59,808 bases of DNA from a virus. Taxonomy: Duplodnaviria > Caudoviricetes. How positions within the stretch are numbered: position 1 is the stretch's first letter; each line of letters starts with the position of its first letter. Positions 1-38,345 of this stretch are shown here, piece by piece. The notes beneath the pieces are model-generated. The model saw only the letters and a list, made by a program, of their open reading frames with translations. It had not been told where the DNA came from and searched no databases. The translations under genes and the position numbers were made by a program. The DNA lies in IMG/VR virus record IMGVR_UViG_3300020045_013036, positions 1-59,808 of that record. One strand, given 5' to 3'.

Positions 1-121
1 ACACCCCGCTTGAGGTTGCTCAAGCCCAACAGGTTGAAGCTGCCGCCACCCCGCTACCGGTGATTGACACCGCCGCATTGGGCGCTGAGGTTGAGGCGGT
101 AACCGCCCCCCGCGTTGCTGC
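1..121. repeat. Terminal direct repeat (circular-assembly overlap), copy 1
   Basis: Bases 1-121 are identical to 59688-59808, and the giant ORF reads in frame across the junction. Confidence 0.95.
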
Positions 122-3100
122 CGCCAAGCAGGCACTGACCAAAGCGGGCTACCTGCCTGAAGTTGCACGCGATATGGTGACAACCAGCACCGCTGATTTG
201 CGCCGCCAACATGGTGAGATTGGTGCTGACCCCGCCCGCACCCAGATGGCTGAAGCCTTACTGGAACAACGCGGTGCGCCGGTTGCCCCGGAAGCCCGTG
301 CGGCCCGTGCTGATCTGGAGGCTGAAGTTCAGACACTAGCTAAAGCGGTTGGGCGCACACCAGCTTCACTGCGCCAACTCCTGCAAGGTGTCACCGAGCA
401 GCAAGCCCTGAACAACCTGAGCAACCCAACCTTGGCACAACAGCATCCGGTAATGCGGGCGCTGGGTGTGGTTCGTGGTTGGGATTTGGTTGAGCCGGGT
501 GTTGAGGAAATCACCGCCGCCGAGATTGAAGAACCGGTAATGGGTATTGATCAGGGGATGGTCAATGAGTTAAACGCCGAGCGCCTGCTCACCCGCAGCG
601 GTGCCATTGAGCTTTCCGATCGCTTGAATGATCTGGTTGTGGATAACGCCCCCGATGACGTGGTTGAGGCCATGATGAGTGTTTCTCGTTTCACACCGGG
701 TGAGGCTGAGGACAGCGCAATATTTGCTGAGGACAGTGCCGCGGTTCTGAAGTGGCTGCAATCTGAAGAAGGCGCGACTGTTGGTGGTTTGCGTTACGCC
801 GGGCAGTTGAATCGGGTACGTGACATTCTTGGCCTACGCTCGATTGGTAAAACCGAAAGCGCTTCGACCCCAGCCGATAACCAGCTTGAAGCAATGCTGC
901 GTGAAGCCAAGAACGCACCGGATGAGGTGGTTGATCGTGACGCCAAGATCGCCGAGTTGGAACGCATGGCCGGCGACATCACCATGACCCCGGTTCAGCG
1001 CCGCGGCTATCGCGCCCAAGCTGCCAACCTACGCACCGAGCGTGACGCTGAGGCTACCGCAAACACCCCGACCGCCAGCGGCACCCGCGCCGGTGTGCGC
1101 TCCGTTCAGCGTAACTTCGAGGCCCGCGCCCAAGCTGCCAAGCGCAGTGGTGTGCTGCAAAAGCTGGGTAAGTTCTGGCGCAATGTGATGGCTTCCCGAA
1201 ATGCCGGGCAGCGCACCCTGCCCAAGATTGACACCAGCGACCTGAAAGCCCCGATGCGTTCCGCGGTGACAACTGGCCGAGCCCTCCCCCAAGCGGCTTT
1301 GACCGAGATCAAGAATCGCTACAACGCCAAACTCCGCACGATGGCTGAGAAATGGGCCGCCACCAATGGTGCCAACATGGCCACATGGGTTGATCCGATC
1401 ATCAGCATTGAGCCGCAATACACAGGGCGATCCGCTGGTTTCAGTATGCGCCTGCACGGTCTCGGCCGCGGTGGCAATGAAAACCCCTACGCCATTCGAC
1501 CAACCCACCTCACCGCATCTTTCAGCGCTGACCACACCATTCACGCCTCAGCCCTGCAATCGGCACCGGGCGCCGCTGATTTGGCCTATCGCATTGCCGC
1601 TGAAGTTGGCGCTTTGCGTGGTGTCCCGTTCCCGTCAGATCAAACTTTGACCACGGTCAATCCGCTGCGCCGCCAACTGCAATCAATGTCGGCTGACACC
1701 CTGTTCGCCCCCGGCACTATCGACCCCCTCACATCGGGTGGGCGCCAAGGCCCCCAAGGTGTGCCGCCGGATGTGTGGCGCACCCTGACTGATGTTGAGA
1801 AGGTCGGCCTTAACGCCCTTCGTGCGGCCCACTCAATCACCGAAACCCGGGCGAACAGCGCCACCGGCGGTGAGTGGTTGGAGAATCTGGAGTTTGATCG
1901 TCAAGGTCGTATCGTGGCTGTCACCGATCCGAAGCCGATTGACAATCTGCGCACCGGCGTTCGCACCCCGTTCGGCTTTGCGCGCGGCACCGTGGTCACT
2001 GACCAAATGCTGAAGGATAAGATTGGTGAGACCAACCCGGCTACCGGCTACACTACCTTCGCACAGGAGTCCCGGGGTACGGGTGGTATTGGTGTCGATA
2101 CGGCCAAGCTGGGTATCCTGAACAACACCGTTCTGAATTTTATTGAGAACAACCCAGAAGCTGAGATTCCAGCATGGATGGGTACCGTTGCCCGAAGCAC
2201 TGGGCGCGCAATGGGTGGTTGGTTCTTCTCCGAAAACGAGGAAGCCGCTGCAACCGGGATCACCAAAACCGAAGCCGATCAACACTTGCGCGATGTGGTT
2301 GGCGACAAGGTGGCTCAGGTATTGCTTGACACTGGTCTCGTCCGCTTCGTGGAAACCCCGGCTGAACTAGCTGATCTCGGTGGTGTGCCACTGAGTTCGG
2401 TATCCGGCGCAGTGCAGGGTGCCACGCTGGATGACGGTTCAATCGTTTTGGTGGTGGGCAACCTGAGTGACAAGACAGCCGCCGCCGTGCTTCAGCATGA
2501 GGCCCTGCACGCCACACTGAAGGGCTTGGTGGGCGAGGGCACCTACACGCGCCTGATGGGCCGCCTTGATACCTTGCTGCAAGCTGGCGGGCAGGCTCAG
2601 TGGGTGAAGGATGCACGCGCCGCTGTTCCGGCCAACACCCCGGCCGAGAACGTCACGGAAGAGGTTGCAGCCTATGCGCTTGAGCAGTACCTGAAGAACC
2701 CGGAAAGCACCAATCCGATCGTCGCTTGGGCGCGTAACCTGATGTCGGCGATTCGCACCGCTATCATCCAGAGCAAGAGCTTGCCGGAAGCCCTCCGCGT
2801 GTGGGCTATCCAGAACATCCAACCCCAAGACTTCGCCCGCATGGCGATTGCCGGCTTGAAGAAGAGCGCTACGACCCAAGGCTCAATGCGGGAGAGCCGG
2901 CGCGACTTCGACGGTGAAATCGCAGCCCTGATGGAAGAGCACAAGGGCGCCACCCCCGAGCGCCGCGCCGAGATCAATCAGGAACTGAACAGCCTGAACA
3001 AGTTCCGCACCGCTGCGGCTGATATCAACTACGAGGAAAACACCAATGAGCCCGCAAACCTTCGAGGCGAAAATGCCCGAGTACCTGCTCAAGCTGAATA

Positions 3101-6100
3101 CGGCACAGCCCGGGAAGGCGCCGTTTCAATCGACGCAACCCACTTCAGCAACACCGAGCGAACCACCCTCAGCACATCGGCTTATGGACGAGGTGCAAAG
3201 GGTGAAGAAGCGGGCCGCCTAGCCACTCCGGAAAACGCAGACATTCGTGACCGCACCCACTTTTATGTGAATGAAGGGCAAGGCATCACCCCTGAACAGG
3301 GTGTCGGCAGCGTGGCGCACAATGTCAAGCTGAACAACATCTACGACATCAAGGCTGACAAGCTGGGCATCCGTGCGGCGGCCGGCGAGAACGTGAGCGC
3401 TATGGAACGCGCCGTGATTGCCGCCGGGTTCGATGGTTACTATGCCCCGCAAATCGCGAACAACCAAGGCGTCGCTGTGGTGATTGGCAAGCACAGCATC
3501 CCAGTTAGCGCCGGCCAAGGTGGCACCAATCTGGTTGCCCAGTTTGAAGGTGACACCTACGCCGCTAATCTGGCCAAGTCAAAGTTGCCGGGCGGGTCAA
3601 TGCTGGGTCGTGAGTGGTTGGCCAGCATCAAGGGTACCGAGTTCGACACCGCCAACGTGCGGGCTGAACTGGAGGTTCGCCAAGGCGAGCGCTTGTACCG
3701 TGACGATCTGCCGCGCTTCAACAAGTCGAGCAACGGGAACATGAAGTTCTCCATCGCACAGGAGGTCAATCAAACCGTGACCGCGGTTTCGGAATCACCG
3801 GCCCCGCGCGCTGAACTGAATGTGCTGGACAACCCCCACCGCGGCCCAGTTGAACGGGTGATGGAGATGGTGCGTGGCGTGCTGCAAGACAAGCATACGA
3901 CCTTGCGCCGCTTGCAGCAGTTGGCCGGCGTGACGGTGGATCAGATAAAGATGGACACCATGGGGGCGCTTGACCGCCTTGGTTCCAAGATGGCAACCAA
4001 GCAACGCTCACTGGTCATGGAGCCGCTGGCCGCCATGGAGAACATTCTGCAAGCTGGATACACCGGACCCAAGGCCGACGAAGAGGCTTATCACGACATC
4101 AACACCCTGTTGAAAATGCGCCATGTGCCCGAGTACAACGCTCGCATGGCCTTGATCAACCCGGCCAAGTATGACGCGAACGGTGAGCACCTGACGGGCC
4201 ATGACGCAGCCAACCCGGGTTCAGGTATCACCGATGAGGTTGCCTCCGCAGAGGTTGCCCGCCTTGAAGCTGGCCCCCACGCCAAGGTTCTCCTTGAAGC
4301 CGAAAAGACTTATCGCCAGATGATCCATGACCTTCAGGATTATGCTGTAGCTCAAGGGCTTGAGACCGCCGGCCTGATTGAAGCGTGGCGTGACCCTGAG
4401 ACCGGGTTCCCGAACTACACACCGTTCCATCGCGAACTTGATCTGGATGAGAACTTCGGTATTGGCACGACCAAGGGTGGGCAGGCATTCTCTCTGCGCA
4501 CCGGTATCACGCAGCGGGCCATGGGTTCGAAGGCTGAGGTCGTTGATCCGCTGGCCAGCACCCTGATTCTGGGTACCCGCATTGTTCGCCGCGGTGAGAA
4601 TGCAGCCGTCGCCCGCACGATGTTTGAGTTTGCCAAGGATGTCATCCCGAACTACCTGTCAAGCAACGGCGAGTTGAAGCCGATGTGGAGTGTAGATGTG
4701 GTGCCGCAAACCCGCGTGCTGAAGCGTGTCAATATCTACAAGACCCGTATGGCCAACGGCGAAATGTCACCTGAATTCTACAACCGGGAGCAGGCCCGCC
4801 TCTATGCTGACGCTCAGCAAACCATCTGGGTAAATCAAAACCCAGATGCTGATCCAACCACCAGTGGTATTCAGGTTGATCTGCTTGGCGCCGGTGAGCG
4901 GGTGTTCAGCCAACCAATCCCAGACACCATGAATCGCGACAACATCATGGTGATTCCGGTCAAAGGTGAAAACCACATCATCACCTTTGACGAGGGCTCC
5001 GCTGACGGGATGGCAATCTTGCGCGCCTTGAAGGGTAAGGATGGCCTCGGTGCCGGCGCCAAAGCTGCAAGCAAGTTGCTCACTCCGTTCCGCATGTTCT
5101 CCCGCTGGACGGTGGCAATGGCGACAGGGTACAACCCGATGTTCATGCCGTTCAACTCCATGCGTGACGTGTTTGGTTCGATGATCAACGCCAAGGATGG
5201 CGGGGTGCCGGGTTGGAGTTGGAAGGATAGTCGGCAAATTGCGTATCAGTTCCCAGCCGCTTTTGCTGGCATCAACGCGCGCCTGCATGAAGAGTTCCAA
5301 GCCCGCCATAGCAACACCGGCGCCGCCGCCGAAGCTGAGCCCGACTCATGGGGTTGGTGGATGGACCAAGCCGAGCGCGCTGGCGGCATGACAGGGGTTA
5401 TGGAACACATCGCTGAACCGGAAGAGGCCCGCACAATGCTGCGTCGCCTGTATGGTTCTGAGGTGGAGGCTCAAGCTCTTGGTCCAAACGAGGTCAAGGA
5501 TTGGTTGAGCCGGGGTCAAAACACCCTGCTTAAAATTGGTGACAAGTTCTATAAATTCGGTGAGGGTGAGACCAAGGGTGTTGGTGAGTGGGCTTCCAAG
5601 CAAATCGCCGCACGCATCAAGCGTTTCAACTCTGCATCTGAGGCTGCCACACGCACTATCGTGTTCAAGAAGGCAACCGAAAAGTACATGGAGCAGGGTC
5701 ACAGTCAAGCCGAGGCAATGCAACTGGCGGCCGTGGTGTCGAAGAACATCTCGACCAACTTCAACCGGCGCGGTAGTTTCTCGACCGCATTGAATCAACT
5801 GTTCCCGTTCTTTAATGCTGCGGTGCAAGGTTCCGCCCGACTGGCTGAGGCCCTGTTCGAAAAGGAAACCTACACCATCAACAAGGATGGCCACGTCGTC
5901 ACGGACCAGCGCACCCGCATCACCCCGTTCGGTAAAAACGTGCTCAAGGGCATGGCGTCAATCGGCGCGGCGCAGGCTGCCCTTCTGTTCGCTGGCGGGT
6001 TTGATGATGACGAGCCGCCGCAATCGGTGAAAGACCGCAACTTCATCGTGCCGCTGGGTGACAAAAAATACTTGATGATCCCCATGCCACACGGCTTCAA

Positions 6101-6977
6101 CACGCTGGTTAATTTCGGCCGTGAGATGACGCAAACTATGGGTGCTGCGGCAAGTGGCAATTTCAAGCAGGCCCGCAAACACTTCAACGCCGCAACGCTG
6201 GGTCAGATTTCAGCCTTCAACCCGTTCGGCGGGCAAGGCGGTCTGGGGCTTACCATCAGCCCGGCATTGAGCGACCCGGCAATCGCCCTGTACTTCAACG
6301 AGGATGCGTTTGGCCGCCCGATTGCCCGCGAAGACTTCAACCCGCGCAACCAGACCCCGGGCTTCACGCGCACCAAGGAGGGTGGCAGCACCAGTGGGCG
6401 GGCTGTGGCCCAACTTCTGAACAGCATCTCAGGTGGCAACGAGGATCAGCCGGGTGGTATCAGCCCAACAGGTGACCAGATTGACTACCTGCTTGGCGAA
6501 CTGGGTGGTGGCCTGACCCGTGAAGTGCTGAAGGCTGGTAAGGTTGGGTGGGCCGGCGTCGAGGACGTGACCAGCACACCGCGTGAAGAGTTGCCGGTCA
6601 GCAAGGTGCCGCTGATTGGCCGCCTCTACGGTGAAGCCAAGGGGGCGGTCGGCATTCGCACCCGGGCCTTCGAAGTCAGTGGGGAACTGAACCAACTGAA
6701 CAACCGCTACAAGGGTTTGATGGAGCGCGCCGCGGCTACACCGGATGCGGCTGAGAAGGAGGCACTGCGACAAAAGGCCCGGGAGTTCAAGGCTGACAAC
6801 CCTGAAATCTCTTTGGCTGATGACTTCAACCGCTTCTACACTTCGGACAGCAAGGCCAAGAAGCAACGTGCGCTGGCCCGGGGTAACAGTGAGGTGGGTA
6901 AGGTGAATCGCATCACTGAGTCCCAGACCGAGAAGGCGACCGAGTTGCTTGAAAAGTACGACCTGTTGGCTGATTAA
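1..6977 (+). CDS. Giant polyvalent/internal virion protein, 3' part (true start 58250; ~2804 aa total); zincin-like HEALH motif, ART-like segment, C-terminal LPD38-like domain
   Basis: ORF 60..6977 is in frame with the ORF opening at ATG 58250. Motifs: VLQHEALH...EEVAAY, AAGFDGYY, KDRNFIVPLGDKKYLMIPMPHGF. It is the last gene of the ejection-protein cluster. Confidence 0.75.
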   Translation, partial: TPLEVAQAQQVEAAATPLPVIDTAALGAEVEAVTAPRVAAAKQALTKAGYLPEVARDMVTTSTADLRRQHGEIGADPARTQMAEALLEQRGAPVAPEARAARADLEAEVQTLAKAVGRTPASLRQLLQGVTEQQALNNLSNPTLAQQHPVMRALGVVRGWDLVEPGVEEITAAEIEEPVMGIDQGMVNELNAERLLTRSGAIELSDRLNDLVVDNAPDDVVEAMMSVSRFTPGEAEDSAIFAEDSAAVLKWLQSEEGATVGGLRYAGQLNRVRDILGLRSIGKTESASTPADNQLEAMLREAKNAPDEVVDRDAKIAELERMAGDITMTPVQRRGYRAQAANLRTERDAEATANTPTASGTRAGVRSVQRNFEARAQAAKRSGVLQKLGKFWRNVMASRNAGQRTLPKIDTSDLKAPMRSAVTTGRALPQAALTEIKNRYNAKLRTMAEKWAATNGANMATWVDPIISIEPQYTGRSAGFSMRLHGLGRGGNENPYAIRPTHLTASFSADHTIHASALQSAPGAADLAYRIAAEVGALRGVPFPSDQTLTTVNPLRRQLQSMSADTLFAPGTIDPLTSGGRQGPQGVPPDVWRTLTDVEKVGLNALRAAHSITETRANSATGGEWLENLEFDRQGRIVAVTDPKPIDNLRTGVRTPFGFARGTVVTDQMLKDKIGETNPATGYTTFAQESRGTGGIGVDTAKLGILNNTVLNFIENNPEAEIPAWMGTVARSTGRAMGGWFFSENEEAAATGITKTEADQHLRDVVGDKVAQVLLDTGLVRFVETPAELADLGGVPLSSVSGAVQGATLDDGSIVLVVGNLSDKTAAAVLQHEALHATLKGLVGEGTYTRLMGRLDTLLQAGGQAQWVKDARAAVPANTPAENVTEEVAAYALEQYLKNPESTNPIVAWARNLMSAIRTAIIQSKSLPEALRVWAIQNIQPQDFARMAIAGLKKSATTQGSMRESRRDFDGEIAALMEEHKGATPERRAEINQELNSLNKFRTAAADINYEENTNEPANLRGENARVPAQAEYGTAREGAVSIDATHFSNTERTTLSTSAYGRGAKGEEAGRLATPENADIRDRTHFYVNEGQGITPEQGVGSVAHNVKLNNIYDIKADKLGIRAAAGENVSAMERAVIAAGFDGYYAPQIANNQGVAVVIGKHSIPVSAGQGGTNLVAQFEGDTYAANLAKSKLPGGSMLGREWLASIKGTEFDTANVRAELEVRQGERLYRDDLPRFNKSSNGNMKFSIAQEVNQTVTAVSESPAPRAELNVLDNPHRGPVERVMEMVRGVLQDKHTTLRRLQQLAGVTVDQIKMDTMGALDRLGSKMATKQRSLVMEPLAAMENILQAGYTGPKADEEAYHDINTLLKMRHVPEYNARMALINPAKYDANGEHLTGHDAANPGSGITDEVASAEVARLEAGPHAKVLLEAEKTYRQMIHDLQDYAVAQGLETAGLIEAWRDPETGFPNYTPFHRELDLDENFGIGTTKGGQAFSLRTGITQRAMGSKAEVVDPLASTLILGTRIVRRGENAAVARTMFEFAKDVIPNYLSSNGELKPMWSVDVVPQTRVLKRVNIYKTRMANGEMSPEFYNREQARLYADAQQTIWVNQNPDADPTTSGIQVDLLGAGERVFSQPIPDTMNRDNIMVIPVKGENHIITFDEGSADGMAILRALKGKDGLGAGAKAASKLLTPFRMFSRWTVAMATGYNPMFMPFNSMRDVFGSMINAKDGGVPGWSWKDSRQIAYQFPAAFAGINARLHEEFQARHSNTGAAAEAEPDSWGWWMDQAERAGGMTGVMEHIAEPEEARTMLRRLYGSEVEAQALGPNEVKDWLSRGQNTLLKIGDKFYKFGEGETKGVGEWASKQIAARIKRFNSASEAATRTIVFKKATEKYMEQGHSQAEAMQLAAVVSKNISTNFNRRGSFSTALNQLFPFFNAAVQGSARLAEALFEKETYTINKDGHVVTDQRTRITPFGKNVLKGMASIGAAQAALLFAGGFDDDEPPQSVKDRNFIVPLGDKKYLMIPMPHGFNTLVNFGREMTQTMGAAASGNFKQARKHFNAATLGQISAFNPFGGQGGLGLTISPALSDPAIALYFNEDAFGRPIAREDFNPRNQTPGFTRTKEGGSTSGRAVAQLLNSISGGNEDQPGGISPTGDQIDYLLGELGGGLTREVLKAGKVGWAGVEDVTSTPREELPVSKVPLIGRLYGEAKGAVGIRTRAFEVSGELNQLNNRYKGLMERAAATPDAAEKEALRQKAREFKADNPEISLADDFNRFYTSDSKAKKQRALARGNSEVGKVNRITESQTEKATELLEKYDLLAD

Positions 6978-30979: not shown

Positions 30980-31423
30980 TTAAAACTGAAGCAGGAAGAA
31001 GACACGCTCATTGTTTGCGCCATCCTGATAACGGACGTTGAGCGCAATCAGCAATTCAGTTGCCAACTTGAAGCGCTTGCTGCTTTCGTCGCACTTGAGA
31101 TCAGCGAGCAAGCGACGCCACGGGCGGGAGAACGCGTTTAGATAGGTTGATTTTACTAGGCCACCCCCATACAGCGGGCCGCGGGGTTCGATTGCAGGTC
31201 GTAGGGTGCGCAGCAGTTCAGCCGCGGGGTTCGATTGTTGCAGGATTTCAGCCTCGATACTGGCGCGGCGAGCTTCTACCGCTTCGGGGGTGGTGAGTTC
31301 AGCTTCCACCTCGGCGCGCAGGGCTTTCATCATTGCCGCATGCTCTTCAGCATATAGCTTTGCTTCCAGTTCAGCCTTGATACTGGCGCGCAGGCTTGCC
31401 ATTGCTTCGGGGGTGGTGTTCAT
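30980..31423 (-). CDS. Coiled-coil protein carrying a copy of the primase-helicase C-terminal domain
   Basis: A C-terminal 70-aa segment is 54/70 identical to the primase C-terminus; AAGGA SD; TTGACA-17-TAACGT upstream. Confidence 0.85.
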   Translation of the reverse strand: MNTTPEAMASLRASIKAELEAKLYAEEHAAMMKALRAEVEAELTTPEAVEARRASIEAEILQQSNPAAELLRTLRPAIEPRGPLYGGGLVKSTYLNAFSRPWRRLLADLKCDESSKRFKLATELLIALNVRYQDGANNERVFFLLQF

Positions 31424-31537
31424 TTGATTTCCTTTCATGGTTGTTGGAGTAGTCACGTTAGAGCGTTGTGAGCGGTTTGTCAATTAACTTTTACGGCTAA
31501 AAGGGCCGATTCAGCCTGTTCAATGGGATGACTTCAC

Positions 31538-31922
31538 GCTATACCACCTGCTATACCACTAGGGGGTGCCTTGAAACCCGCGTGGTTATTAGCTATACCA
31601 CCTAGTACGCTATACCGGGGGTCACAGATTCAGGCGTGTTAATGTTGGTAAGTGATTAAAATGTTAGCCTATTTAGTATATATGATATATTTGATATATA
31701 TTCTATCCCTATTGTGAGGCGAGGGTTCAGCGTTAAGCTTTGACGCTTAAATAATGCTGTATAACCGCACTTTCACACGTGCCCCCCGTTATATTTTTAC
31801 GTTAAATCCCCGTCAAGTATTGATATCTATTTCTGTGACCCCCGGTATAGCGTACTAGGTGGTATAGCGTTGTGCTGCAAGGGTTTCCAGCCGGTGCCCG
31901 GTGGTATAGTGGGTGGTATAGC
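31538..31922. repeat. Putative replication origin: inverted iteron arrays around an AT-rich core
   Basis: Four CTATACC iterons on the left and four GGTATAG on the right; perfect 37-bp inverted repeat 31592-31628/31832-31868; AT-rich 203-bp spacer. Confidence 0.65.
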
Positions 31923-31974
31923 CCCCCGACACCGCGACAAACTGTATGAATATATACGCTTATAAGTTAAAACG

Positions 31975-32177
31975 CGTCAAGGCGTGACACGTCAAGGCGT
32001 GACGGTGAGCGTTATACCGCGTCAAGCTGTGACGCTAAAACCCCGTAAAAAGGCGTAACACCGCCCCCCAGCGTCAAGGTGTAACACTCGTCAAGCCTTG
32101 ACGCTTAACCAGTGCATAACCTGCTCGCGCTTTATAAGATAACCGCCGATGATGCTGTGCGCCGTCAAGCCTTGACG
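31975..32177. repeat. Cluster of CGTCAAG-N3-TRAC[G/A] operator-like palindromes
   Basis: Copies at 31975, 31990, 32020, 32072, 32089 and 32163, with variants at 31731 and 31811. Confidence 0.8.
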
Positions 32178-32178
32178 C

Positions 32179-32281
32179 GTGCTTAGGTTGTTGTGTGCTT
32201 AACCTGATGTTAAGTGATGTGCTTGTTAAGTGATGTGCTTAACCTGATGTTAAGTGCTGACGTGGTTAGGTGATGTGCTTG
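32179..32281. repeat. Short degenerate direct repeats (GTGCTTAACCTGATGTTAAGTG / GTGATGTGCTT)
   Basis: Read directly from the sequence; apparently non-coding. Confidence 0.7.
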
Positions 32282-32472
32282 CTCGCTGATTCGGGGATGA
32301 TTGGGTGCTTGCCCGGGTGTCGGATTGCTCGGGTGCCACCACCCCGCTGAGCCACGGCTCGACTCCTGATGGGGATCGCCACAGAGACAGAGAAAATATC
32401 TGAATCCGTTAGTACCTGACACACCTACACGCCCCCAAATATAAAAACAGAAAATCAGAAAAGGTACCCCAC

Positions 32473-32501
32473 TTGCACCCCGACCCATCACGAACTACAA
32501 T
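32473..32501 (+). promoter_or_regulatory. sigma70-like promoter of the rightward (terminase) operon
   Basis: TTGCAC-17-TACAAT, followed by AGGAG and ATG 32539. Confidence 0.65.
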
Positions 32502-32538
32502 CCGATTCACTTTGAAGCAGAACAGGAGCCTCCCCAAA

Positions 32539-32721
32539 ATGCCATACAACCCGACACCGATCCAATCTAAAATGCAGTATCGCATCGGCGTAGGCCTGAT
32601 CGTGGTTGGCGCTGCCCTCCTGCTCACGGGCTACCTCAGCCACCCCTTCGACCTCACCCTCTCCACGGTGGGTGGGATTACGGCCGCCGCCGGCAACATG
32701 CTTCGCGTGTTTGCGGAATAG
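32539..32721 (+). CDS. Small two-TM membrane protein
   Basis: IGVGLIVVGAALLLTGYL and LTLSTVGGITAAAG. Confidence 0.6.
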   Translation: MPYNPTPIQSKMQYRIGVGLIVVGAALLLTGYLSHPFDLTLSTVGGITAAAGNMLRVFAE

Positions 32722-32725
32722 CCAG

Positions 32726-34282
32726 ATGGCAACCCCCTCCAACGATTTCAAGTACATCCCGCGGGCAGCGTTTATGCCCTACCACCAGCGCACCCAACGA
32801 TATGCGGCAGTGGTGTGCCACCGGCGCGCGGGTAAAACGGTGGGCTTGCTTAACGATACGATTGTGCGCGCCCTCACCCCGAGGGCAGATGGGCTGCGCC
32901 AGCAGTTTGCTTATTTAGCGCCAACACAGGCTCAGGCCCGTGCGGTGGCGTGGGCGTACCTGAAGGAATTCACGGCTTGCTTTGCGAGGTGTGGGGGGTT
33001 CAAGTGTTTGGAGCAGCACCTTTCAATTACCCTACCTGATCCCCGGGACACCAATAAGCCGGGCAGCACAATATTGCTGGTGGGGGCGGAAAACGGTGAG
33101 CGCTTGCGGGGTCTGTTCCTTGACGGTTGCGTGGTTGATGAGGCCGCTGACGTGGCCGACAATATCATCACCACAGTCATTCGTCCCGCGCTGGCAGACC
33201 GCCAAGGTTGGCTGACGATCGCCGGCACCCTGAAGTCGGTGGATGATTTCCTGAACCGGACTTTGGAGTTGGCCCAGCGCGCACCTCTGCTTTACTTCAG
33301 CATGGTGTTGAAGGCTTCCGAGTCAGGCATACTTCCGGGCGAAGAGTTGCGCGACCTCAAGGCCACGATGAGCGAGGAAGCCTACGAAGTCGAAATGGAA
33401 TGCAACGTTGCCGCCGCGGTGAGTGGGCGCATCTTCCTGCCCTATATGCAGGCCAAACAGGTAACGCGCGTACCCTATGACCCCGAGGGGGCGCCGGTCG
33501 TGACAGCGTGGGACTTGGGTATCTCCGACAGCACGGCAATCTGGACCATGCAGATGTGCGGGCGCGAACCCCGCATCCTTGACTTCTATCAGGAGAGCGG
33601 GCAGGACTTGGGGCACTTTGTCACTTGGCTGGGTAAGTTGAGTTATGCGAACCGGCTGGGCGCGCACTTGCTGCCACACGACTCGAAGGTCCGGGAACTG
33701 GGTACCGGCAAGACCCGTATCGAGGTGCTGCGTGACAAGGGGCTGCGGAATATCAAGGTCGTGCCGAAGTTGCCCAAGGATCAGCAGATTGAAGCCGGGC
33801 GCATGCTGCTACCGAAATGCTGGTTCAACGAGGACACCACGGCCGATGGGCGCAAGGCGTTGCGCGGGTATAGCTTTGCCTTCGACCACAAGCGCAAGGT
33901 GTATTCCACGGCACCGCTCCACGATCAATTCTCCAACGGGTGTTTGGTTGCAGGGACGCTGGTTGAAACACCCGGCGGGCAGGTTCCGATTGAGTTGATC
34001 GAAGTTGGTGACAAGGTGCTCACACCTTCAGGGGTTGGGGTTGTGCTTCAATCCGGCCCAACCAAAAAAGCTGACACCTTGTATCGAATAACCACGGCCG
34101 ACGGGCGCACGATAACCGGCACAGGTGAGCACAAGGTATTCATACGGAGAGGACTCGTTCCGTTTGACAAGCTCGTTGAAGGTGATATAATTCACGAAGG
34201 TAAATCAACTTTTTGGAGATTGCTTCGTGGAAGAACAAGAGAAATCTTTTTACGCCTACACGCACTCGCGACCAGACGGTAG
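32726..34282 (+). CDS. terL: Terminase large subunit, N-part, fused to split intein N-half (intein starts at Cys 33941)
   Basis: HRRAGKT, YLAPT, LRGLFLDGCVVDEA, AWDLGISD, LLPHD, then HDQFSNG|CLVAGTLV (block A), TGEHKVF (block B) and a stop. Confidence 0.9.
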   Translation: MATPSNDFKYIPRAAFMPYHQRTQRYAAVVCHRRAGKTVGLLNDTIVRALTPRADGLRQQFAYLAPTQAQARAVAWAYLKEFTACFARCGGFKCLEQHLSITLPDPRDTNKPGSTILLVGAENGERLRGLFLDGCVVDEAADVADNIITTVIRPALADRQGWLTIAGTLKSVDDFLNRTLELAQRAPLLYFSMVLKASESGILPGEELRDLKATMSEEAYEVEMECNVAAAVSGRIFLPYMQAKQVTRVPYDPEGAPVVTAWDLGISDSTAIWTMQMCGREPRILDFYQESGQDLGHFVTWLGKLSYANRLGAHLLPHDSKVRELGTGKTRIEVLRDKGLRNIKVVPKLPKDQQIEAGRMLLPKCWFNEDTTADGRKALRGYSFAFDHKRKVYSTAPLHDQFSNGCLVAGTLVETPGGQVPIELIEVGDKVLTPSGVGVVLQSGPTKKADTLYRITTADGRTITGTGEHKVFIRRGLVPFDKLVEGDIIHEGKSTFWRLLRGRTREIFLRLHALATRR

Positions 34283-35060
34283 TGTCTTTTATGTGGGTAA
34301 GGGGGTTGGTCGTCGGGCTTGGTGGTTCAAGCAGGGACGAAACCCCCATCACCGCTCAATCATTGAAAAACATGGGGCTGCGAATATCATCGTCACCATT
34401 TACGGTTGTGTAAATGAGAGTGCGGCGTTTGAGCTTGAAAAGGAATTGATCGCCAAATACTTGGCGCTCGGTGTTCGGTTGGCGAATCAGACCGCGGGTG
34501 GTGAAGGTGCGAGTGGGCGGCCAATCAGTGATAAAGTTCGGGCTGCGTTTGACGCCAATCGGGGTCAGCCAAAGACAGATGCGGCGAAGGCAGCTGTATC
34601 CGCAGCACTGAAAAAGTCTTGGGAGACAAACCCAGCCATGCGAATAAATGCGCAACAGATGGCTGAAAAACGGCGAGGGGTGAAGCGCCCAGAGCATGTG
34701 GTTGCCGCGCTGGTCAAATCCCACAAGGGGAAGAAACAAACGGGGGTGCGCCTTGAACAAACCCAAGCGGCCCAACGTATAGCGCAGGAAGCAGCTAGGG
34801 TTTGGCATTCAACTGAGGAAGGGAAAAAGTGGCATGAAGCACATGGTAAAAAATCTTGGGAAAATCGTGAGTGGGTTGGTTGCACGTGTCAAGAGTGCGG
34901 GCGCGCATTTGCTTCTCCTTACCCTAAACAGGCAAAATACTGCGAGCCGAATTGTCGCAATCGAGCGAATCGACGTAAGCACGGAAAACCCGTTGGTGTT
35001 CGATCTAAGCGTGTATCCTCAGCGGTGTTATCTGGCAAACGGCTTGTTGGTGAGCAATAG
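34227..35060 (+). CDS. GIY-YIG-family homing endonuclease between and overlapping the split intein halves
   Basis: FYAYTH..DGSVFYVGKG..RRA, E.ELI, LANQTAGGEG, NUMOD-like repeats, C-terminal CxxC..CxxxC; GGAG SD. Confidence 0.82.
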   Translation: MEEQEKSFYAYTHSRPDGSVFYVGKGVGRRAWWFKQGRNPHHRSIIEKHGAANIIVTIYGCVNESAAFELEKELIAKYLALGVRLANQTAGGEGASGRPISDKVRAAFDANRGQPKTDAAKAAVSAALKKSWETNPAMRINAQQMAEKRRGVKRPEHVVAALVKSHKGKKQTGVRLEQTQAAQRIAQEAARVWHSTEEGKKWHEAHGKKSWENREWVGCTCQECGRAFASPYPKQAKYCEPNCRNRANRRKHGKPVGVRSKRVSSAVLSGKRLVGEQ

Positions 35061-35220
35061 TGATGCCTTTCAAATTTTAGCAGTTGGCATGAAGCGAGCA
35101 ATGTCGGTGGTGGATGGCTACGCCCCCGGCGAGGATTTGAGTGTCAGCGGGTTCGGGTCTCAGTTCGATGACGACCGCCCGCTCGCCGAAGCGTGGGAAG
35201 GCGATCACGGGGTTTTTTGA
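34834..35220 (+). CDS. terL: Split intein C-half fused to the terminase C-terminal extein
   Basis: VFDLSV...YLANGLLVSN|SDAFQILAVG; Asn at 35056-35058, +1 Ser at 35059-35061. Start codon uncertain. Confidence 0.85.
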   Translation: MKHMVKNLGKIVSGLVARVKSAGAHLLLLTLNRQNTASRIVAIERIDVSTENPLVFDLSVYPQRCYLANGLLVSNSDAFQILAVGMKRAMSVVDGYAPGEDLSVSGFGSQFDDDRPLAEAWEGDHGVF

Positions 35221-35246
35221 CGCGGGTCCAAAGATAGGGTAGCATC
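35218..35246 (+). promoter_or_regulatory. sigma70-like promoter upstream of the portal operon
   Basis: TTGACG-17-TAGCAT. Confidence 0.5.
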
Positions 35247-35271
35247 CCGACAACTTGAATCGGGGTGCTAT

Positions 35272-35952
35272 ATGGCGCGCGTGAAACTACTTCGGCAATC
35301 GCTGGAAGATTACAACAAGAAAATAATGGCAGGCGATGCCGAGTACCAGTCAGCCTACGGGGTGTATTCCGGCAAGACCGATGCGTACAACGCCCAGATC
35401 AACGCCTTCAATCAAGAGTTGAAGGGGCTTGATGCTGGTGAGATTATTCAGGATGCTGATGGTGGCTTGCAGCAGCTTGACCTCAAGCGCGGGCTTATCA
35501 GGTACAAAGGGCCAACTACAGATGCGTTCTCTCAGGGGCCACGACCCGGGCCTGTCTATCAGGATAAAGGTGGGGGTTGGTTTTACGATAGGCCCGTGTT
35601 TATTAACGACGCCACCTATGATGACGCTGGTAATCAAATCTCCCCAGCACAATACGGTACCCGCAAGACAAGTATCCCAGTTGAAGCAACTCACCCCGGA
35701 ACAGCCCCAGCCGCACCAACCCAAGGTGCTGTGCCGCGCATACCGAACCTTACTCAAGGTGACATCCGTGAGTTGCAAAACCCGAGTGTTGATCAGGCCG
35801 CCATGCAAATGTTGGCCAACAAGGGTATCATCGGCAAGAGTGAATTGGCCGGAATGGACCAAAGTAAGATATCGCCCTTCGCCGATCCGGAAGACCCGAA
35901 CAACTTAAAGGAGGCCGGCATACTTGCCCGCACCCTTGGAGGCCAACTGTAA
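35272..35952 (+). CDS. Hypothetical virion-associated protein
   Basis: Between TerL and portal, TAATG-coupled to the portal. Confidence 0.65.
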   Translation: MARVKLLRQSLEDYNKKIMAGDAEYQSAYGVYSGKTDAYNAQINAFNQELKGLDAGEIIQDADGGLQQLDLKRGLIRYKGPTTDAFSQGPRPGPVYQDKGGGWFYDRPVFINDATYDDAGNQISPAQYGTRKTSIPVEATHPGTAPAAPTQGAVPRIPNLTQGDIRELQNPSVDQAAMQMLANKGIIGKSELAGMDQSKISPFADPEDPNNLKEAGILARTLGGQL

Positions 35953-38345
35953 TGCCGCACGAAATGATTGAGACTGAAGACCTGAGCGCCCTTGACGATA
36001 TGGACGAGGATGAGTTGCAAGCCTTGGAGGATGCGGCCGGCGCCGTGAAGATGGCTGAAGCTGAGCGCCGCGAAGCGCTGGGTAAGATATTGGCCAAGCA
36101 CCGCGACGAGGCTGTTACCTATCGCCAGAACTCGGGTATCGAGCAGCAGTGGGCCGAGGACCAAGCCTATTACGAGGGTGAGGACGAGAGCGCCAAGACC
36201 CTTTACTACAAAGGTACGACGGCTGATTCACCGCTTATCGCCAAACCTAAAAGCAAGTTCCGTTCCAAGGTTTTCCTGAACATCACTCGCCCCTATGTCG
36301 AGACCGCCGCCTCCAAGGTGATCGACGTGCTGGCCCCAAGCGACGAGGCAATGTGGAGCCTGACGCCCACATCCATCCCGGAGATGCCCGAGAAGCCCAG
36401 CCCGCTGGTACAGGCCGCCCAACTCGCCCAGATGCAGGGTGGTATTGACCCAGCAACCGGCCAACCCAGCCAAGGGCCGGCGCCGGCCGTCGATCCGAAC
36501 GAAGAGATCATCAAGGCAGCCAAGCGCGCCGCCGCCGGGGCTACGGTGTGGATCAGCGACAAGCTGGAGCAATGCGACTTCGGCGGGGAACTCCGCATGG
36601 TTGTGGATGAATCCGCTCGACTCGGTACCGGGATCATGCGCGGCCCTGTGCCACAGGTTACCCGCTCCATGAAGAGCACCTTCGATGAGCGGGGTGAGAC
36701 CATGGAGATCATGGAAACCATCGACCCGGCATCCAAGAAGATCAGCGTTTGGGATGCCTTCCCTGACCCGGCTTGCGGCGACAATATTCACAATGGTCAG
36801 TTCTTTGTCGAGCACGACAACATGGTTGAGCGCCAAGTGCGTGACTTGGTTGGCCAACCCGGCTACATTGAAGAGGCCTTGATGCACGTGCTGGAAGAAG
36901 GCCCGCGCACCAGCATGATTTCAGCCATGGCGCAGGCGCCCCATGCCAACCAAGACAAGTCGGCGGCCCGATACCATGTCTGGTATTACTATGGCTTCCT
37001 GAAGCGCGAAGATGTGCTGGCCATGAGCTGTGGCTGCGAACCCGAGGATGAACTGAAGAACATCGGCGTGCCGGTCGTGGTTACCATGATCAACGATACC
37101 CCGGTCAAGACCCACCTGAACCTCTCATCCGACGGCCACTTCCCCTACGACTTCATGTGCTGGCAGAAGGTTGCCGGCTCACCGTTCGGTATCGGTATCG
37201 CCCGCCAGATTCGTAGCTGCCAAGCGATCCTGAATTCCCATGTTCGCGCCATGATGGAAAATGCTGGCCTATCAAGTGGCCCGCAGATCATCATTGCCCG
37301 GGGCGCTGTCGTTCCGGCTGACGGTAGTTGGGAGATCACCCCGCGCAAGGTCTGGTTGCTCAAGGCTGACGCCGATGTGCAGGATGTGTCGCAAGCGATG
37401 AACTCGGTGGTGATACCCAGCATTCAGGCTGAGCTTCTGTCGGCGATCGAGTTTGCCCTGAAGATGGCCGAGAACGTGACTGGCTTGCCGATCCTGCTGC
37501 AAGGACAGCAGGGGCCGAACGGCGTACCTGAGACTGTGGGTGGTATGCAGATTCTGGTGGCCAATGCTTCAGGGTTGCTGCGCCGCATGGCTCGCATCTT
37601 CGATGACTGCTTGATCAAACCCCACATCCGTGCCTATTACGCTTGGATGATGTGTTACGCCGAAGACTCCAGCATCAAGGGTGACTATCGCGTAGTGGCG
37701 CACGGCTCTAGTGCGCTGGTAACACGGGATCAGCGCAACACCTTCATCACCCAAGTGGCCCCCACCCTGATGAATAACCCAAGCTTCGGCATTGACCCCA
37801 CCAAGCTGTTCAAGGAGATCGCCAAGATCGCCGGTATCCATGATCCGGAGAGCCTGCAATTCACCCCGCAGGAAATGGCCGCGCTGCAACAGGCTCAAGC
37901 TCAGGCGCTGGCACAAGACCCGAAGATTCAGGTTGCCACCATGACCAACCAGACCCGCTTGCAGGTTGCCGAGATGCAGAACCAAACGAATCAGTTGCGT
38001 GTCCAGCGCGATACAGATCGCGATTCCATCTACGTCGGTATGGAAACTCAGCGCACGCAGGTGGCCAGCGCCACCAAGATGGCCGAGTTGGAGTTGCGCC
38101 GCGAACTGGCTTTGCTCGAATATGCCAACAACAACCAGATCAGCCTTGAAAAGCTGAAGGCCCAACTGGCTATCGAAGCTGGCCGTAACGATCTGCAACG
38201 CGAACTGGCCACCCTGCCAACCCCGGATGAAATCGCCTCTACGGTGCGCGGTGAGAACATCGAAAGCAACCCGATGGCTCAGGTGGCAACACCGGCGGTT
38301 GAGCCCCCGGGCCGCGCCCCCAACGGTCAGGCATTCACCCAATGA
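35952..38345 (+). CDS. Portal protein with long C-terminal helical barrel
   Basis: Size and position; LGTGIMRGP, WDAFPDP, PFGIG, ETVGGMQIL; Q-rich coiled coil. Confidence 0.82.
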   Translation: MPHEMIETEDLSALDDMDEDELQALEDAAGAVKMAEAERREALGKILAKHRDEAVTYRQNSGIEQQWAEDQAYYEGEDESAKTLYYKGTTADSPLIAKPKSKFRSKVFLNITRPYVETAASKVIDVLAPSDEAMWSLTPTSIPEMPEKPSPLVQAAQLAQMQGGIDPATGQPSQGPAPAVDPNEEIIKAAKRAAAGATVWISDKLEQCDFGGELRMVVDESARLGTGIMRGPVPQVTRSMKSTFDERGETMEIMETIDPASKKISVWDAFPDPACGDNIHNGQFFVEHDNMVERQVRDLVGQPGYIEEALMHVLEEGPRTSMISAMAQAPHANQDKSAARYHVWYYYGFLKREDVLAMSCGCEPEDELKNIGVPVVVTMINDTPVKTHLNLSSDGHFPYDFMCWQKVAGSPFGIGIARQIRSCQAILNSHVRAMMENAGLSSGPQIIIARGAVVPADGSWEITPRKVWLLKADADVQDVSQAMNSVVIPSIQAELLSAIEFALKMAENVTGLPILLQGQQGPNGVPETVGGMQILVANASGLLRRMARIFDDCLIKPHIRAYYAWMMCYAEDSSIKGDYRVVAHGSSALVTRDQRNTFITQVAPTLMNNPSFGIDPTKLFKEIAKIAGIHDPESLQFTPQEMAALQQAQAQALAQDPKIQVATMTNQTRLQVAEMQNQTNQLRVQRDTDRDSIYVGMETQRTQVASATKMAELELRRELALLEYANNNQISLEKLKAQLAIEAGRNDLQRELATLPTPDEIASTVRGENIESNPMAQVATPAVEPPGRAPNGQAFTQ

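Follow-up and report, generated by a model that had tools for sequence, protein, structure and literature searches.

The large terminase gene (terL) of a tailed phage (Duplodnaviria; Caudoviricetes; IMG/VR record IMGVR_UViG_3300020045_013036) was found to be fractured into two open reading frames (ORFs) that carry the N-terminal (IntN) and the C-terminal (IntC) half of an intein, respectively, at their broken ends. A third ORF, attributed to an endonuclease of the GIY-YIG class, uses the remaining reading frame and overlaps both halves. The window, by which we mean the whole stretch of DNA analysed, is a complete virus record of 59,808 bp with direct terminal repeats. The anatomy of the locus, its conservation among relatives, the purifying selection specific to each frame and the existence of empty alleles were directly established. 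Judging from the sequence, the fractured gene is very probably rebuilt by protein trans-splicing and accompanied by a homing endonuclease. The coordinates of the features are collected in Table 1.

Table 1. Features of the fractured terL locus (positions of the window)
Feature	Position	Strand	Remarks
TerL N-extein, 405 aa	32726..33940	+	ATPase domain and most of the nuclease domain; C-terminal end ...PLHDQFSNG
Mobile element (intein and nuclease gene)	33941..35058	+	1118 bp; absent from related phages
IntN	33941..34282	+	113 codons and TAG (34280-34282), in frame with the N-extein; core residues 1-88 (33941-34204)
Sigma-70-type promoter consensus	34164..34191	+	TTGACA, 16 nt, TG-n-TATAAT; IntN codons 75-84; 36 nt upstream of the nuclease start
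Putative ribosome-binding site of the nuclease gene	34215..34218	+	GGAG; 8 nt before GTG; in invariant W-R-L codons of the IntN tail
Putative homing endonuclease gene, free-standing, 277 aa	34227..35060	+	GTG start, TAG 35058-35060; frame +1 relative to IntN
Putative ribosome-binding site of IntC	34815..34823	+	purine-rich GAGGAAGGG; 10 nt before the IntC ATG
IntC	34834..35058	+	75 aa: 35-aa leader and 40-aa core; block F VFDLSV, block G ...NGLLVSN; frame +1 relative to the nuclease
TerL C-extein, 53 aa and TGA	35059..35220	+	first residue Ser+1, then Asp (35062-35064); empty alleles continue in one frame
Terminator-like hairpin with T-run, terL end	35192..35219	+	weak; pattern scan only

Architecture of the fractured terminase gene

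The first ORF (frame A, 32726..34282) fuses 405 residues of TerL without a break to the 113 residues of IntN, and it matched the PHROG families phrog_2 'terminase large subunit' (E 7.8e-23) and phrog_2472 (E 3.5e-27). When the TerL N-extein was used as a tblastn query, 465 phage records were matched; among the 30 matches listed, 30/30 were annotated as terminase or large terminase, and the best ones came from Microcystis phage Mvi-Yong1342-1, Rhodoferax phage P26218 and pelagiphages of the HTVC010P type, with 38-41% identity. A profile built from 16 intein-less relatives reached the ATPase domain of the P74-26 TerL (4zni, E 3.4e-6). The identity of the host gene as terL and the presence of its ATPase domain can be considered well supported on the basis of these similarities.

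Intact TerLs of the Mvi-Yong1342-1/P26218/HTVC010P type carry the motif H-D-W-S-S-H-A-A-D-A-F, to be compared with H-D-Q-F-S-N-G, the insert and then S-D-A-F in the window. The Asp that follows the splice junction (35062-35064) is encoded by the C-extein only, in agreement with the preliminary description of this DNA, and was invariant in 16/16 intein-less TerL alleles. In the G2P terminase of SPP1, His400 and Asp403 bind metal and the substitution D403N kills the nuclease activity (PMC2685612). Mapping of the window motif N-x-x-D on the H-x-x-D of G2P suggested that the Asp of the window is probably the catalytic Asp of the TerL nuclease motif.

IntN begins directly after ...SNG with Cys1 (33941-33943) in the sequence Cys-Leu-Val-Ala-Gly-Thr. 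This Cys was invariant in 8/8 aligned IntN sequences, as were, among the aligned sequences, T61 and H64 of block B (T61-G-E-H64). IntC and the C-extein share one ORF, from the ATG at 34834 to the TGA at 35218-35220, in which the terminal Asn of the intein (35056-35058) is followed by Ser+1 (35059-35061). The Asp of block F (D57), the terminal Asn (N75) and Ser+1 were invariant in the aligned IntCs. The reading of both halves as parts of a split intein, put forward in the preliminary description, was thus borne out by the presence of the splicing blocks and by their invariance in all relatives. The placement of IntC in a separate frame was confirmed as well, with a correction regarding its extent: it likely comprises 75 aa starting from a conserved ATG, and its 35-aa leader is apparently a by-product of the overlap. 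Both this leader and residues 89-113 of IntN, the tail that overlaps the nuclease start, are strongly basic (+6 each), and the two cores are near neutral.

Structure prediction of the IntN/IntC complex gave a score of 0.82, the best of three controls reaching 0.00; the mark applied to such scores is reached by 58/80 solved complexes and by 2/110 mismatched pairs. The runs agreed in at least 88% of the contacts, with a partner predicted local distance difference test (pLDDT) value of at least 67, and the confident part of the predicted interface joined IntN residues 1-88 with IntC residues 36-75. Because split-intein complexes have already been solved, this result may mirror the likeness of the pair to them rather than its binding. 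Taken at face value, these features suggest that the element encodes a naturally split class-1 intein, broken at the canonical split site, with functional cores of about 88 and 40 aa.

The endonuclease and the overlap of three frames

The middle ORF displays an N-terminal GIY-YIG domain, a NUMOD3-like middle part and a C-terminal, Cys-rich, zinc-finger-like module that presumably binds DNA. It overlaps the IntN ORF by 56 nt and encloses all 225 nt that encode IntC. Its TAG combines the third base of the Asn codon with the first two of the Ser codon, and it therefore straddles the splice junction. In 10/10 split loci the nuclease stop was located between -1 and +2 nt from the last base of the intein. 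Upon rereading of the sequence, all coordinates of the preliminary description (IntN 33941-34282, endonuclease 34227-35060, TAG 35058-35060) were correct, and both the three-frame overlap and the stop codon on the Asn/Ser junction were seen as it had reported them.

GIY-YIG catalytic domains are characterized by the GIY...YIG motifs and by conserved Arg, His, Glu and Asn residues. The corresponding motifs of the window nuclease, F-Y-A-Y...F-Y-V-G-K-G, R29/R30, H42, E71 and N87, were invariant in 8/8 sequences. The protein matched phrog_314 'homing endonuclease' (E 2.5e-14), and a profile of eight nuclease homologues compared with the PDB reached the GIY-YIG protein 9u75 (E 7e-6). With the N-terminal 88 residues of the predicted structure, the top nine Foldseek matches were all GIY-YIG proteins (probability 0.98-1.00; TM-score to the target 0.52-0.57 for UvrC domains); together with the 9u75 match, they sustain the class that the preliminary description had assigned to this ORF. 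About 36 other protein clusters showed 55-75% identity to the nuclease, and more distant ones carry NUMOD3 (PF07460). Its C-terminal third contains a Cys-x-Cys-x-x-Cys ... Cys-x-x-x-Cys module, which also matched PHROG families of HNH endonucleases. The assignment of the middle ORF as a homing endonuclease of the GIY-YIG/NUMOD type is supported by these similarities.

Conservation of the layout and selection in each frame

DNA of relatives was taken from two scans (23 and 22 loci), and 48 loci besides the window were screened by tblastn. IntN, nuclease and IntC were arranged in frames f, f+1 and f+2 in 9/48 of these loci (L005, L006, L028, L015, L010, L012, L020, L022 and L038, of which L022 is cut at its 5' end), with amino-acid identities of 55-75%. 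A protein search with residues 330-518 of the frame A product retrieved nine clusters (P0001-P0009; 511-542 aa) that were 57-75% identical over 99-100% of this stretch. All of them consist of a truncated TerL N-terminal part followed by IntN, and they end with the tail ...F-L-R-L-H-A-L-A-x-x-R or with slightly shorter versions of it. The homologues having a 113-codon IntN all share one tail ending.

Selection was measured as the mean pairwise nucleotide diversity per codon phase among eight loci. In the part that encodes IntN only, the third position of IntN codons was the most variable (0.47 versus 0.24 and 0.20), and the same held for the third position of the nuclease in the part that encodes the nuclease only (0.46 versus 0.17 and 0.17). 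The nuclease frame was dominant in the 53-nt overlap with the IntN tail (0.31 at the nuclease third position), and the overlap with the IntC leader was mixed (0.32, 0.26 and 0.20). In the IntC core the third position of IntC was the most variable (0.29 versus 0.14 and 0.16), as was that of the C-extein in its own part (0.61). The most variable phase thus shifts at the places expected for three real genes. Both intein cores and the nuclease are hence each under purifying selection. Judging by this codon-phase pattern, residues 89-113 of IntN (the tail) and residues 1-35 of IntC (the leader) also appear to be side products of the overlap.

The mobile element and its empty site

The limits of the element were given by a 62-kb viral contig (L004), about 90% identical to the window at the nucleotide level and 95% at the amino-acid level. 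Its blastn alignment with the window covered 32724-33940 and resumed at 35061, a gap that defines a mobile element of 1118 bp at 33941-35058. The empty allele of L004 reads ...FSNG-ADAF... in one frame. Further empty alleles were found in cluster P0010 and at locus L029, those of P0010 and L004 having the single-frame sequence ...HDQFSNG-ADAW/F-QILAVG.... In 17 loci, the tblastn matches of the N-extein and of the C-extein abutted in one frame, some of these loci being one contig present in two collections.

Both alleles were also found in one sample, since a sequencing run (X2) yielded contigs of either kind. One of them spans positions 33853-35148 with the element and differs from the window by 55 substitutions and one compensated +1/-1 indel pair. 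A second one joins position 33925 to position 35061 with 17 letters in between, the frame being kept. The compensated indel pair falls at window positions 34712-34715, inside the nuclease gene; it was observed in contigs of X2 and of a further run (X3) and amounts to a local difference of one to two codons with the frame kept.

The start of the C-extein was unusually divergent when compared with L004 (region 35059-35100 versus L004:5216-5260): 22 of the first 30 nt were identical, the differences being mostly synonymous, against 26-30 identical positions per 30 nt over the next 90 nt. This could reflect either divergence of the target site or a conversion tract. No such elevated divergence was seen when the window was compared with L005 or L028. 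With these two loci, the identity of the flanks (0.6-0.8) was not above that of the element (0.57-0.90), so that the comparison gave no evidence of a co-conversion tract or of recent transfer between their lineages and that of the window.

Candidate expression signals inside the element

The promoter-like sequence located in IntN shows 12/12 matches to the sigma-70 hexamers in addition to the TG of an extended -10 region. It is the only exact match to the sigma-70 consensus in the 59.8-kb genome, and 0/100 shuffles gave any. It is kept exactly in L005, L006 and L028 (clade A). The element may therefore bring along a promoter of host type, from which the nuclease and perhaps also the IntC-TerL-C ORF would be transcribed.

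Candidate ribosome-binding sites precede both internal start codons. Upstream of the nuclease, TTTGGAG was invariant in 9/9 aligned loci and was followed 8-11 nt later by GTG or ATG. Upstream of IntC, a GA-rich tract and the subsequent ATG, which yields the 75-aa product, were kept in 10/10 split loci. This ATG arises from the nuclease codons for Trp-His-(Glu/Ala), read as TGG-CAT-G. CAT-G was used in 8/8 split loci examined, CAT making up 70/158 of the His codons overall in these genes. The contiguous-intein relatives have CAT-A, CAC-A, CAT-T and CAT-T at the same place, that is, an ATG in 0/4. Considering that the sample is small and its members related, this codon choice is taken as supportive only.

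Probable protein trans-splicing and alternative explanations

According to the mechanism that we favour, the TerL-N-IntN and IntC-TerL-C proteins would be translated apart, the latter from its own ATG and ribosome-binding site within the nuclease gene. The two intein cores would then associate into a HINT fold and trans-splice by means of Cys1 and Ser+1, giving a 458-aa TerL with the junction ...FSNG-SDAF.... The endonuclease would be transcribed at least partly from the sigma-70 promoter inside IntN; it would cut the intein-less terL of co-infecting relatives, into which the element would be copied.

A number of observations weigh against this interpretation or against parts of it. In the window and all its close relatives, Ser is the penultimate residue of the intein; the distant relatives seen have Ser, Ala, Phe or Lys there, never His. 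A penultimate His assists Asn cyclisation in most inteins; it is common and not universal, and inteins can splice without it. The preliminary description had pointed out the Ser correctly, except that it is a trait of the whole family and not an oddity of this copy. Intein profile hidden Markov models matched both halves with scores below their curated cut-offs. IntN stayed just under the curated cut-offs of Hint_2 (E 4.3e-6; 27.6 versus 28.4 bits) and of TIGR01445 (E 5.8e-5; 24.0 versus 24.5), and the two halves scored 19.7 and 15.9 with Intein_splicing, against its cut-off of 35.8. The IntC match to this last profile (E 0.011) covered profile positions 119-155 of 155, and a relative with a contiguous intein (P0038) passed it with 49.1 versus 35.8.

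Other reservations concern the flanking gene, the nuclease and the sampling. Sequence and profile searches of the PDB with TerL reached the ATPase domain only and did not match a solved TerL nuclease domain, and the AlphaFold model of an intein-less TerL allele, based on 16 close sequences, had a pLDDT of 49.9, with residues 231-458 below 50. Terminase_6C gave no more than E 0.025 with a relative of 41% identity. The nuclease domain thus has no link to a solved structure, and a catalytic function of the Asp at the junction is deduced from motif analogy. The AlphaFold model of the endonuclease had a pLDDT of 59, its Foldseek E-values ranged from 6e-3 to 0.14 with none at or below 0.001, and scans with Pfam, including its GIY-YIG models, and with NCBIfam gave no family match for this protein. 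The promoter is degenerate in clade B (3/6 and 4/6 matches, TG retained). As the IntC ATG lies inside a conserved nuclease motif (K-W-H-E), part of its conservation could be a by-product. The ten split loci, window included, represent about six well-separated lineages by sequence rather than ten independent cases. Finally, the sequencing runs consisted of Logan contigs only, which hold no information on transcripts, RNA ends, starts, strand or expression; the RNA label of one run (X5) is a guess, and uncovered stretches in two others (X1 and X3) carry no meaning.

A first alternative is that the two TerL fragments complement each other non-covalently, the intein halves serving as a dimerisation handle that no longer splices; phage Aeh1, with its fractured but intein-less NrdA, provides a parallel. 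In favour of it are the missing penultimate His, the predicted IntN/IntC complex, which speaks for association and not for chemistry, and the fractured genes cited by Dassa et al. (PMC2677866) that work in the absence of any intein. We nevertheless consider complementation unlikely. Cys1, the T-x-x-H motif, the block F Asp, the terminal Asn and Ser+1, i.e. all residues of the splicing chemistry, are invariant across the relatives even though the loci differ at 25-45% of the other positions. Moreover, occupied alleles have Ser at +1 where several empty alleles have Ala. The relatives with a contiguous ...VSN|S intein in TerL (P0038, L021, L037) must splice in cis to make a functional enzyme.

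Another possibility is recoding: two programmed +1 frameshifts, one per overlap, would produce a single TerL precursor containing a canonical intein with an in-frame GIY-YIG domain. The frames indeed step by +1 and +1, each change falls within an overlap where both frames are open, and the nuclease occupies the position at which inteins usually harbour their endonuclease. However, the nuclease and IntC ORFs have each retained a start codon and a ribosome-binding site of their own in all loci, and selection in the IntN tail and the IntC leader follows the nuclease frame, as expected of by-product tails and not of one protein. No slippery or shift-prone motif was noticed, in the course of an inspection that did not include a systematic search for one. 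A search for a longer, in-frame fused form gave a single 546-aa protein that matched 47% of the query, so that the absence of such a form is weakly indicated, and locus L037 (see below) regained a single frame by deletion, not by shifting. Recoding thus appears very improbable as compared with trans-splicing of two separate products.

The window is a single metagenome-assembled record and the comparisons were made with contigs, not with raw reads, so that assembly or sequencing indels, or else a dead terL in a defective phage, had to be considered. This reading is largely refuted, and we attach hardly any likelihood to it. The layout recurs in nine loci from other records at 55-75% identity, the codon-phase signatures of purifying selection concern all three frames, the IntC ATG is kept with its ribosome-binding site, and the record itself is complete with its direct terminal repeats. 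The independent X2 contig also has the same frames, which together with the nine loci speaks against indels, a concern raised in the preliminary description, as the cause of the split. Because of this recurrence, of the frame-specific diversity and of the preserved IntC start, the three-frame layout is real and not a sequencing error. Lastly, a group I intron carrying a GIY-YIG gene, with removal of the insert from the RNA instead of the protein, would be in line with the typical association of GIY-YIG homing endonucleases with such introns and with free-standing phage genes (PMC2677866), and yet it borders on the implausible, given that an Rfam scan of 31000-37000 at E values up to 1 matched no family and so lends no support to an RNA intron, that the ends of the insert encode intein blocks in frame with the exteins, and that the weak consensus RNA fold near the nuclease start (-5.7 kcal/mol over eight loci) showed compensatory change in only 2/18 pairs, without convincing covariation. 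On the basis of this fold, no sequestration of the ribosome-binding site is claimed either.

Relatives with other states of the element

Two insertion points three codons (9 bp) apart were distinguished among the split loci: ...SNG|SDAF in the clade of the window (33941) and ...HDKN|SNFSDAF in clade B (L010:1477, L015:622, L020:179 and L038:1102). Ser is found at +1 at both points, and matching empty alleles exist for both. A re-fused form was observed in L037 (1534-2226), in which nuclease residues 1-219 are deleted and the IntN tail is continued in frame by the IntC leader, resulting in a contiguous mini-intein of about 174 aa. The other two frames still hold an N-terminal remnant of the nuclease, closed by a stop codon, and the C-terminal nuclease module. 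The loss of the nuclease in L037 implies that the overlap does not make the nuclease indispensable. The overlap itself, from which the preliminary description had deduced that the endonuclease is locked into an essential element, is real; the lock is not complete.

Contiguous inteins were found in other terminase types, namely at L021:4817-5749 (identical to L044 and L045), L023:920-1981, L024:2570-3628 (identical to L048) and L025:1819-2847. An HNH endonuclease ORF of 190-226 aa is nested wholly within each of them, one base out of register. The C-terminal module of these HNH proteins is homologous to that of the window nuclease (E 2e-19 to 2e-8). Their stop codon lies at the splice junction in L021 and 99-235 nt upstream of it in L023-L025. 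The intein frame remains free of stops across the HNH ORF, with codon-shuffle P values of 0.0014 (L021), 0.0002 (L023), 0.07 (L024) and 0.003 (L025). The nuclease C-terminus and IntC stand in a +1 register in the window and in all relatives with a nested HNH ORF, and this constancy suggests an old dual-coding module. As a working hypothesis, the replacement of an HNH head by a GIY-YIG head may have broken the intein frame.

These states raise a broader proposition, which we put forward tentatively and regard as somewhat improbable on present data. The window may be one state of a family-wide system of overprinting between intein and endonuclease, of which the relatives capture every stage, fracture and re-fusion being reversible and recurrent through swaps of endonuclease domains. 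The stages would conceivably comprise the empty site (L004), the nested HNH form (L021, L023-L025), the split form that followed the exchange of the HNH head for a GIY-YIG head (the window and nine loci) and the re-fused mini-intein left by deletion of the endonuclease (L037). At the core of such a system, if it exists, the C-terminal DNA-binding domain of the endonuclease and IntC would be read from one and the same DNA with an offset of one base, both ending at the splice junction. Were this proposition true, the strong sigma-70 promoter of the element would make the synthesis of the C-terminal TerL fragment independent of that of the N-terminal one, and a selfish element would set the packaging competence of the phage.

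A further terminase intein was noted at L047:4001-4995. Its IntN stops at 4303, an HNH ORF (4254-4835) uses a second frame, and the third frame is open from 4192 through IntC. It is one frame change away from a contiguous form like P0040 and could be newly fractured, the result of a frameshift mutation or simply an error of sequencing.

Comparison with described systems

Fractured genes were described by Dassa, London, Stoddard, Schueler-Furman and Pietrokovski in 2009 (PMC2677866), who listed 26 such loci, including GIY-YIG endonucleases and one terminase. In 15 of these loci the 3' end of the endonuclease gene overlaps the start of IntC by 6-69 bp, and the model proposed there is that the invading element supplies the stop, start and control signals. 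The preliminary description had rightly treated split inteins with an endonuclease between the halves as known; the newness that it implied has to be lowered, as the report cited already contains fractured genes with GIY-YIG endonucleases, a terminase broken in this way and overlaps of 6-69 bp between endonuclease and IntC. The window resembles those loci in the order, on one strand, of host N-part with IntN, free-standing endonuclease and IntC with host C-part. GIY-YIG is one of the two endonuclease types that they contain, a phage terminase is among the host genes, and the break lies at the usual endonuclease insertion point.

Several differences emerged from the same comparison. A non-coding spacer of 27-51 nt precedes the endonuclease in the loci of Dassa et al., whereas the window has none and shows the 56-nt overlap with IntN instead. 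The overlap with IntC, limited to 6-69 bp in their loci, extends in the window over 225 nt and the whole of IntC, the nuclease gene being entirely located in intein coding sequence. Their terminase is a gp17-like (myovirus) TerL with an unusual break and a 122-aa IntC, in contrast with the HTVC010P/P26218-like TerL and the canonical break reported here. Their control element is T4-late-like, that of the window a sigma-70 consensus.

AceL-TerL and GOS-TerL are likewise naturally split inteins of metagenomic origin from phage large terminases, and they serve as protein-ligation tools (PMC11766414). They are split atypically, with an IntN of 25-37 aa, an IntC of 104-115 aa and the residues Cys1/Cys+1 or Ser1/Cys+1 (PMC11766414). 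The intein of the window has a conventional split, cores of about 88 and 40 aa and Cys1/Ser+1, this comparison being one of published descriptions only.

Out-of-frame homing endonucleases in contiguous inteins have been reported by Gosselin, Arsenault and Gogarten (bioRxiv 10.1101/2025.01.02.630785) and by Phillips, DeSimone and Gogarten (bioRxiv 10.64898/2026.09.14.751524). According to these preprints, the endonuclease frame differs from that of the intein and exteins, purifying selection in the overlap tracks the endonuclease frame, such inteins are proposed to have originated when a free-standing endonuclease gene invaded an intein, and several cases concern terminase genes; all this is shared by the window. 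The inteins of those preprints are contiguous, with an open intein frame, and their endonucleases are endonuclease VII-like, LAGLIDADG or antisense, unlike the window with its broken intein frame and its GIY-YIG nuclease. L021 and L023-L025 are of the contiguous kind, but with HNH endonucleases.

As for the nuclease itself, the appropriate comparators are presumably the GIY-YIG/NUMOD enzymes of the I-TevI/I-BmoI type. The window protein differs from this type in that the Pfam GIY-YIG models remained silent and that the nearest solved structure, 9u75, is a restriction-type GIY-YIG protein. Another difference is its C-terminal module, which is common to the HNH endonucleases of related inteins and co-encoded with IntC. 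The general plan is the same, with an N-terminal catalytic domain of about 90 aa, a linker, C-terminal DNA-binding modules and a phage location (PMC2677866).

The window hence belongs to a known class, since both fractured genes and out-of-frame intein nucleases have already been published, and this copy is an unusually compact one. As these general phenomena are in print, the finding extends an existing picture and does not open a new one. In the literature searched, we did not find a nuclease gene fully embedded in intein coding sequence in a third frame, although closer precedents may be held in the supplements of the papers. The same search returned no conventionally split TerL intein beside the invariant Asp, with the reservation that Table S1 and Figures S1/S4 of Dassa et al. 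may hold one, and no embedded consensus promoter or natural re-fused derivative, for which the supplements of Dassa et al. and Gosselin et al. may differ.

The interest of the locus is fourfold. It is a case of extreme coding compaction: 1.1 kb hold three proteins in three frames, with a consensus promoter as well as two ribosome-binding sites written into the codons. The natural series of empty, nested out-of-frame, split and re-fused forms makes the gene-breaking model of the origin of split inteins directly testable. Packaging should depend on trans-splicing beside an invariant, probably catalytic, Asp, which would offer a handle on the tolerance of phages to obligate post-translational repair. 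The conventionally split Cys1/Ser+1 intein family, with its approximately six diverged variants and a natural fused form, provides candidates for orthogonal protein ligation.

Other features of the window and of related terminases

A terminator-like hairpin was predicted at the end of terL. Five terminator-like sites were counted in the region against 3.1 expected from shuffles; they are thus no commoner than in shuffled sequences, and the hairpin is to be regarded as weak. A portal-like ORF (PHROG) is located downstream of terL at 35952-38345.

A different intein, of about 350 aa and with a LAGLIDADG domain (PF14528 in P0028), was found in relatives of this TerL, in the Walker A region after ...RRAGK (P0014, P0028; L007:1886-2919, L030:1057-2090). 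Its first residue is not Cys, Ser or Thr, a trait that we take to be reminiscent of class 3 inteins. In the window itself, a very long ORF of 2324 aa (3-6977) is open at the record start.

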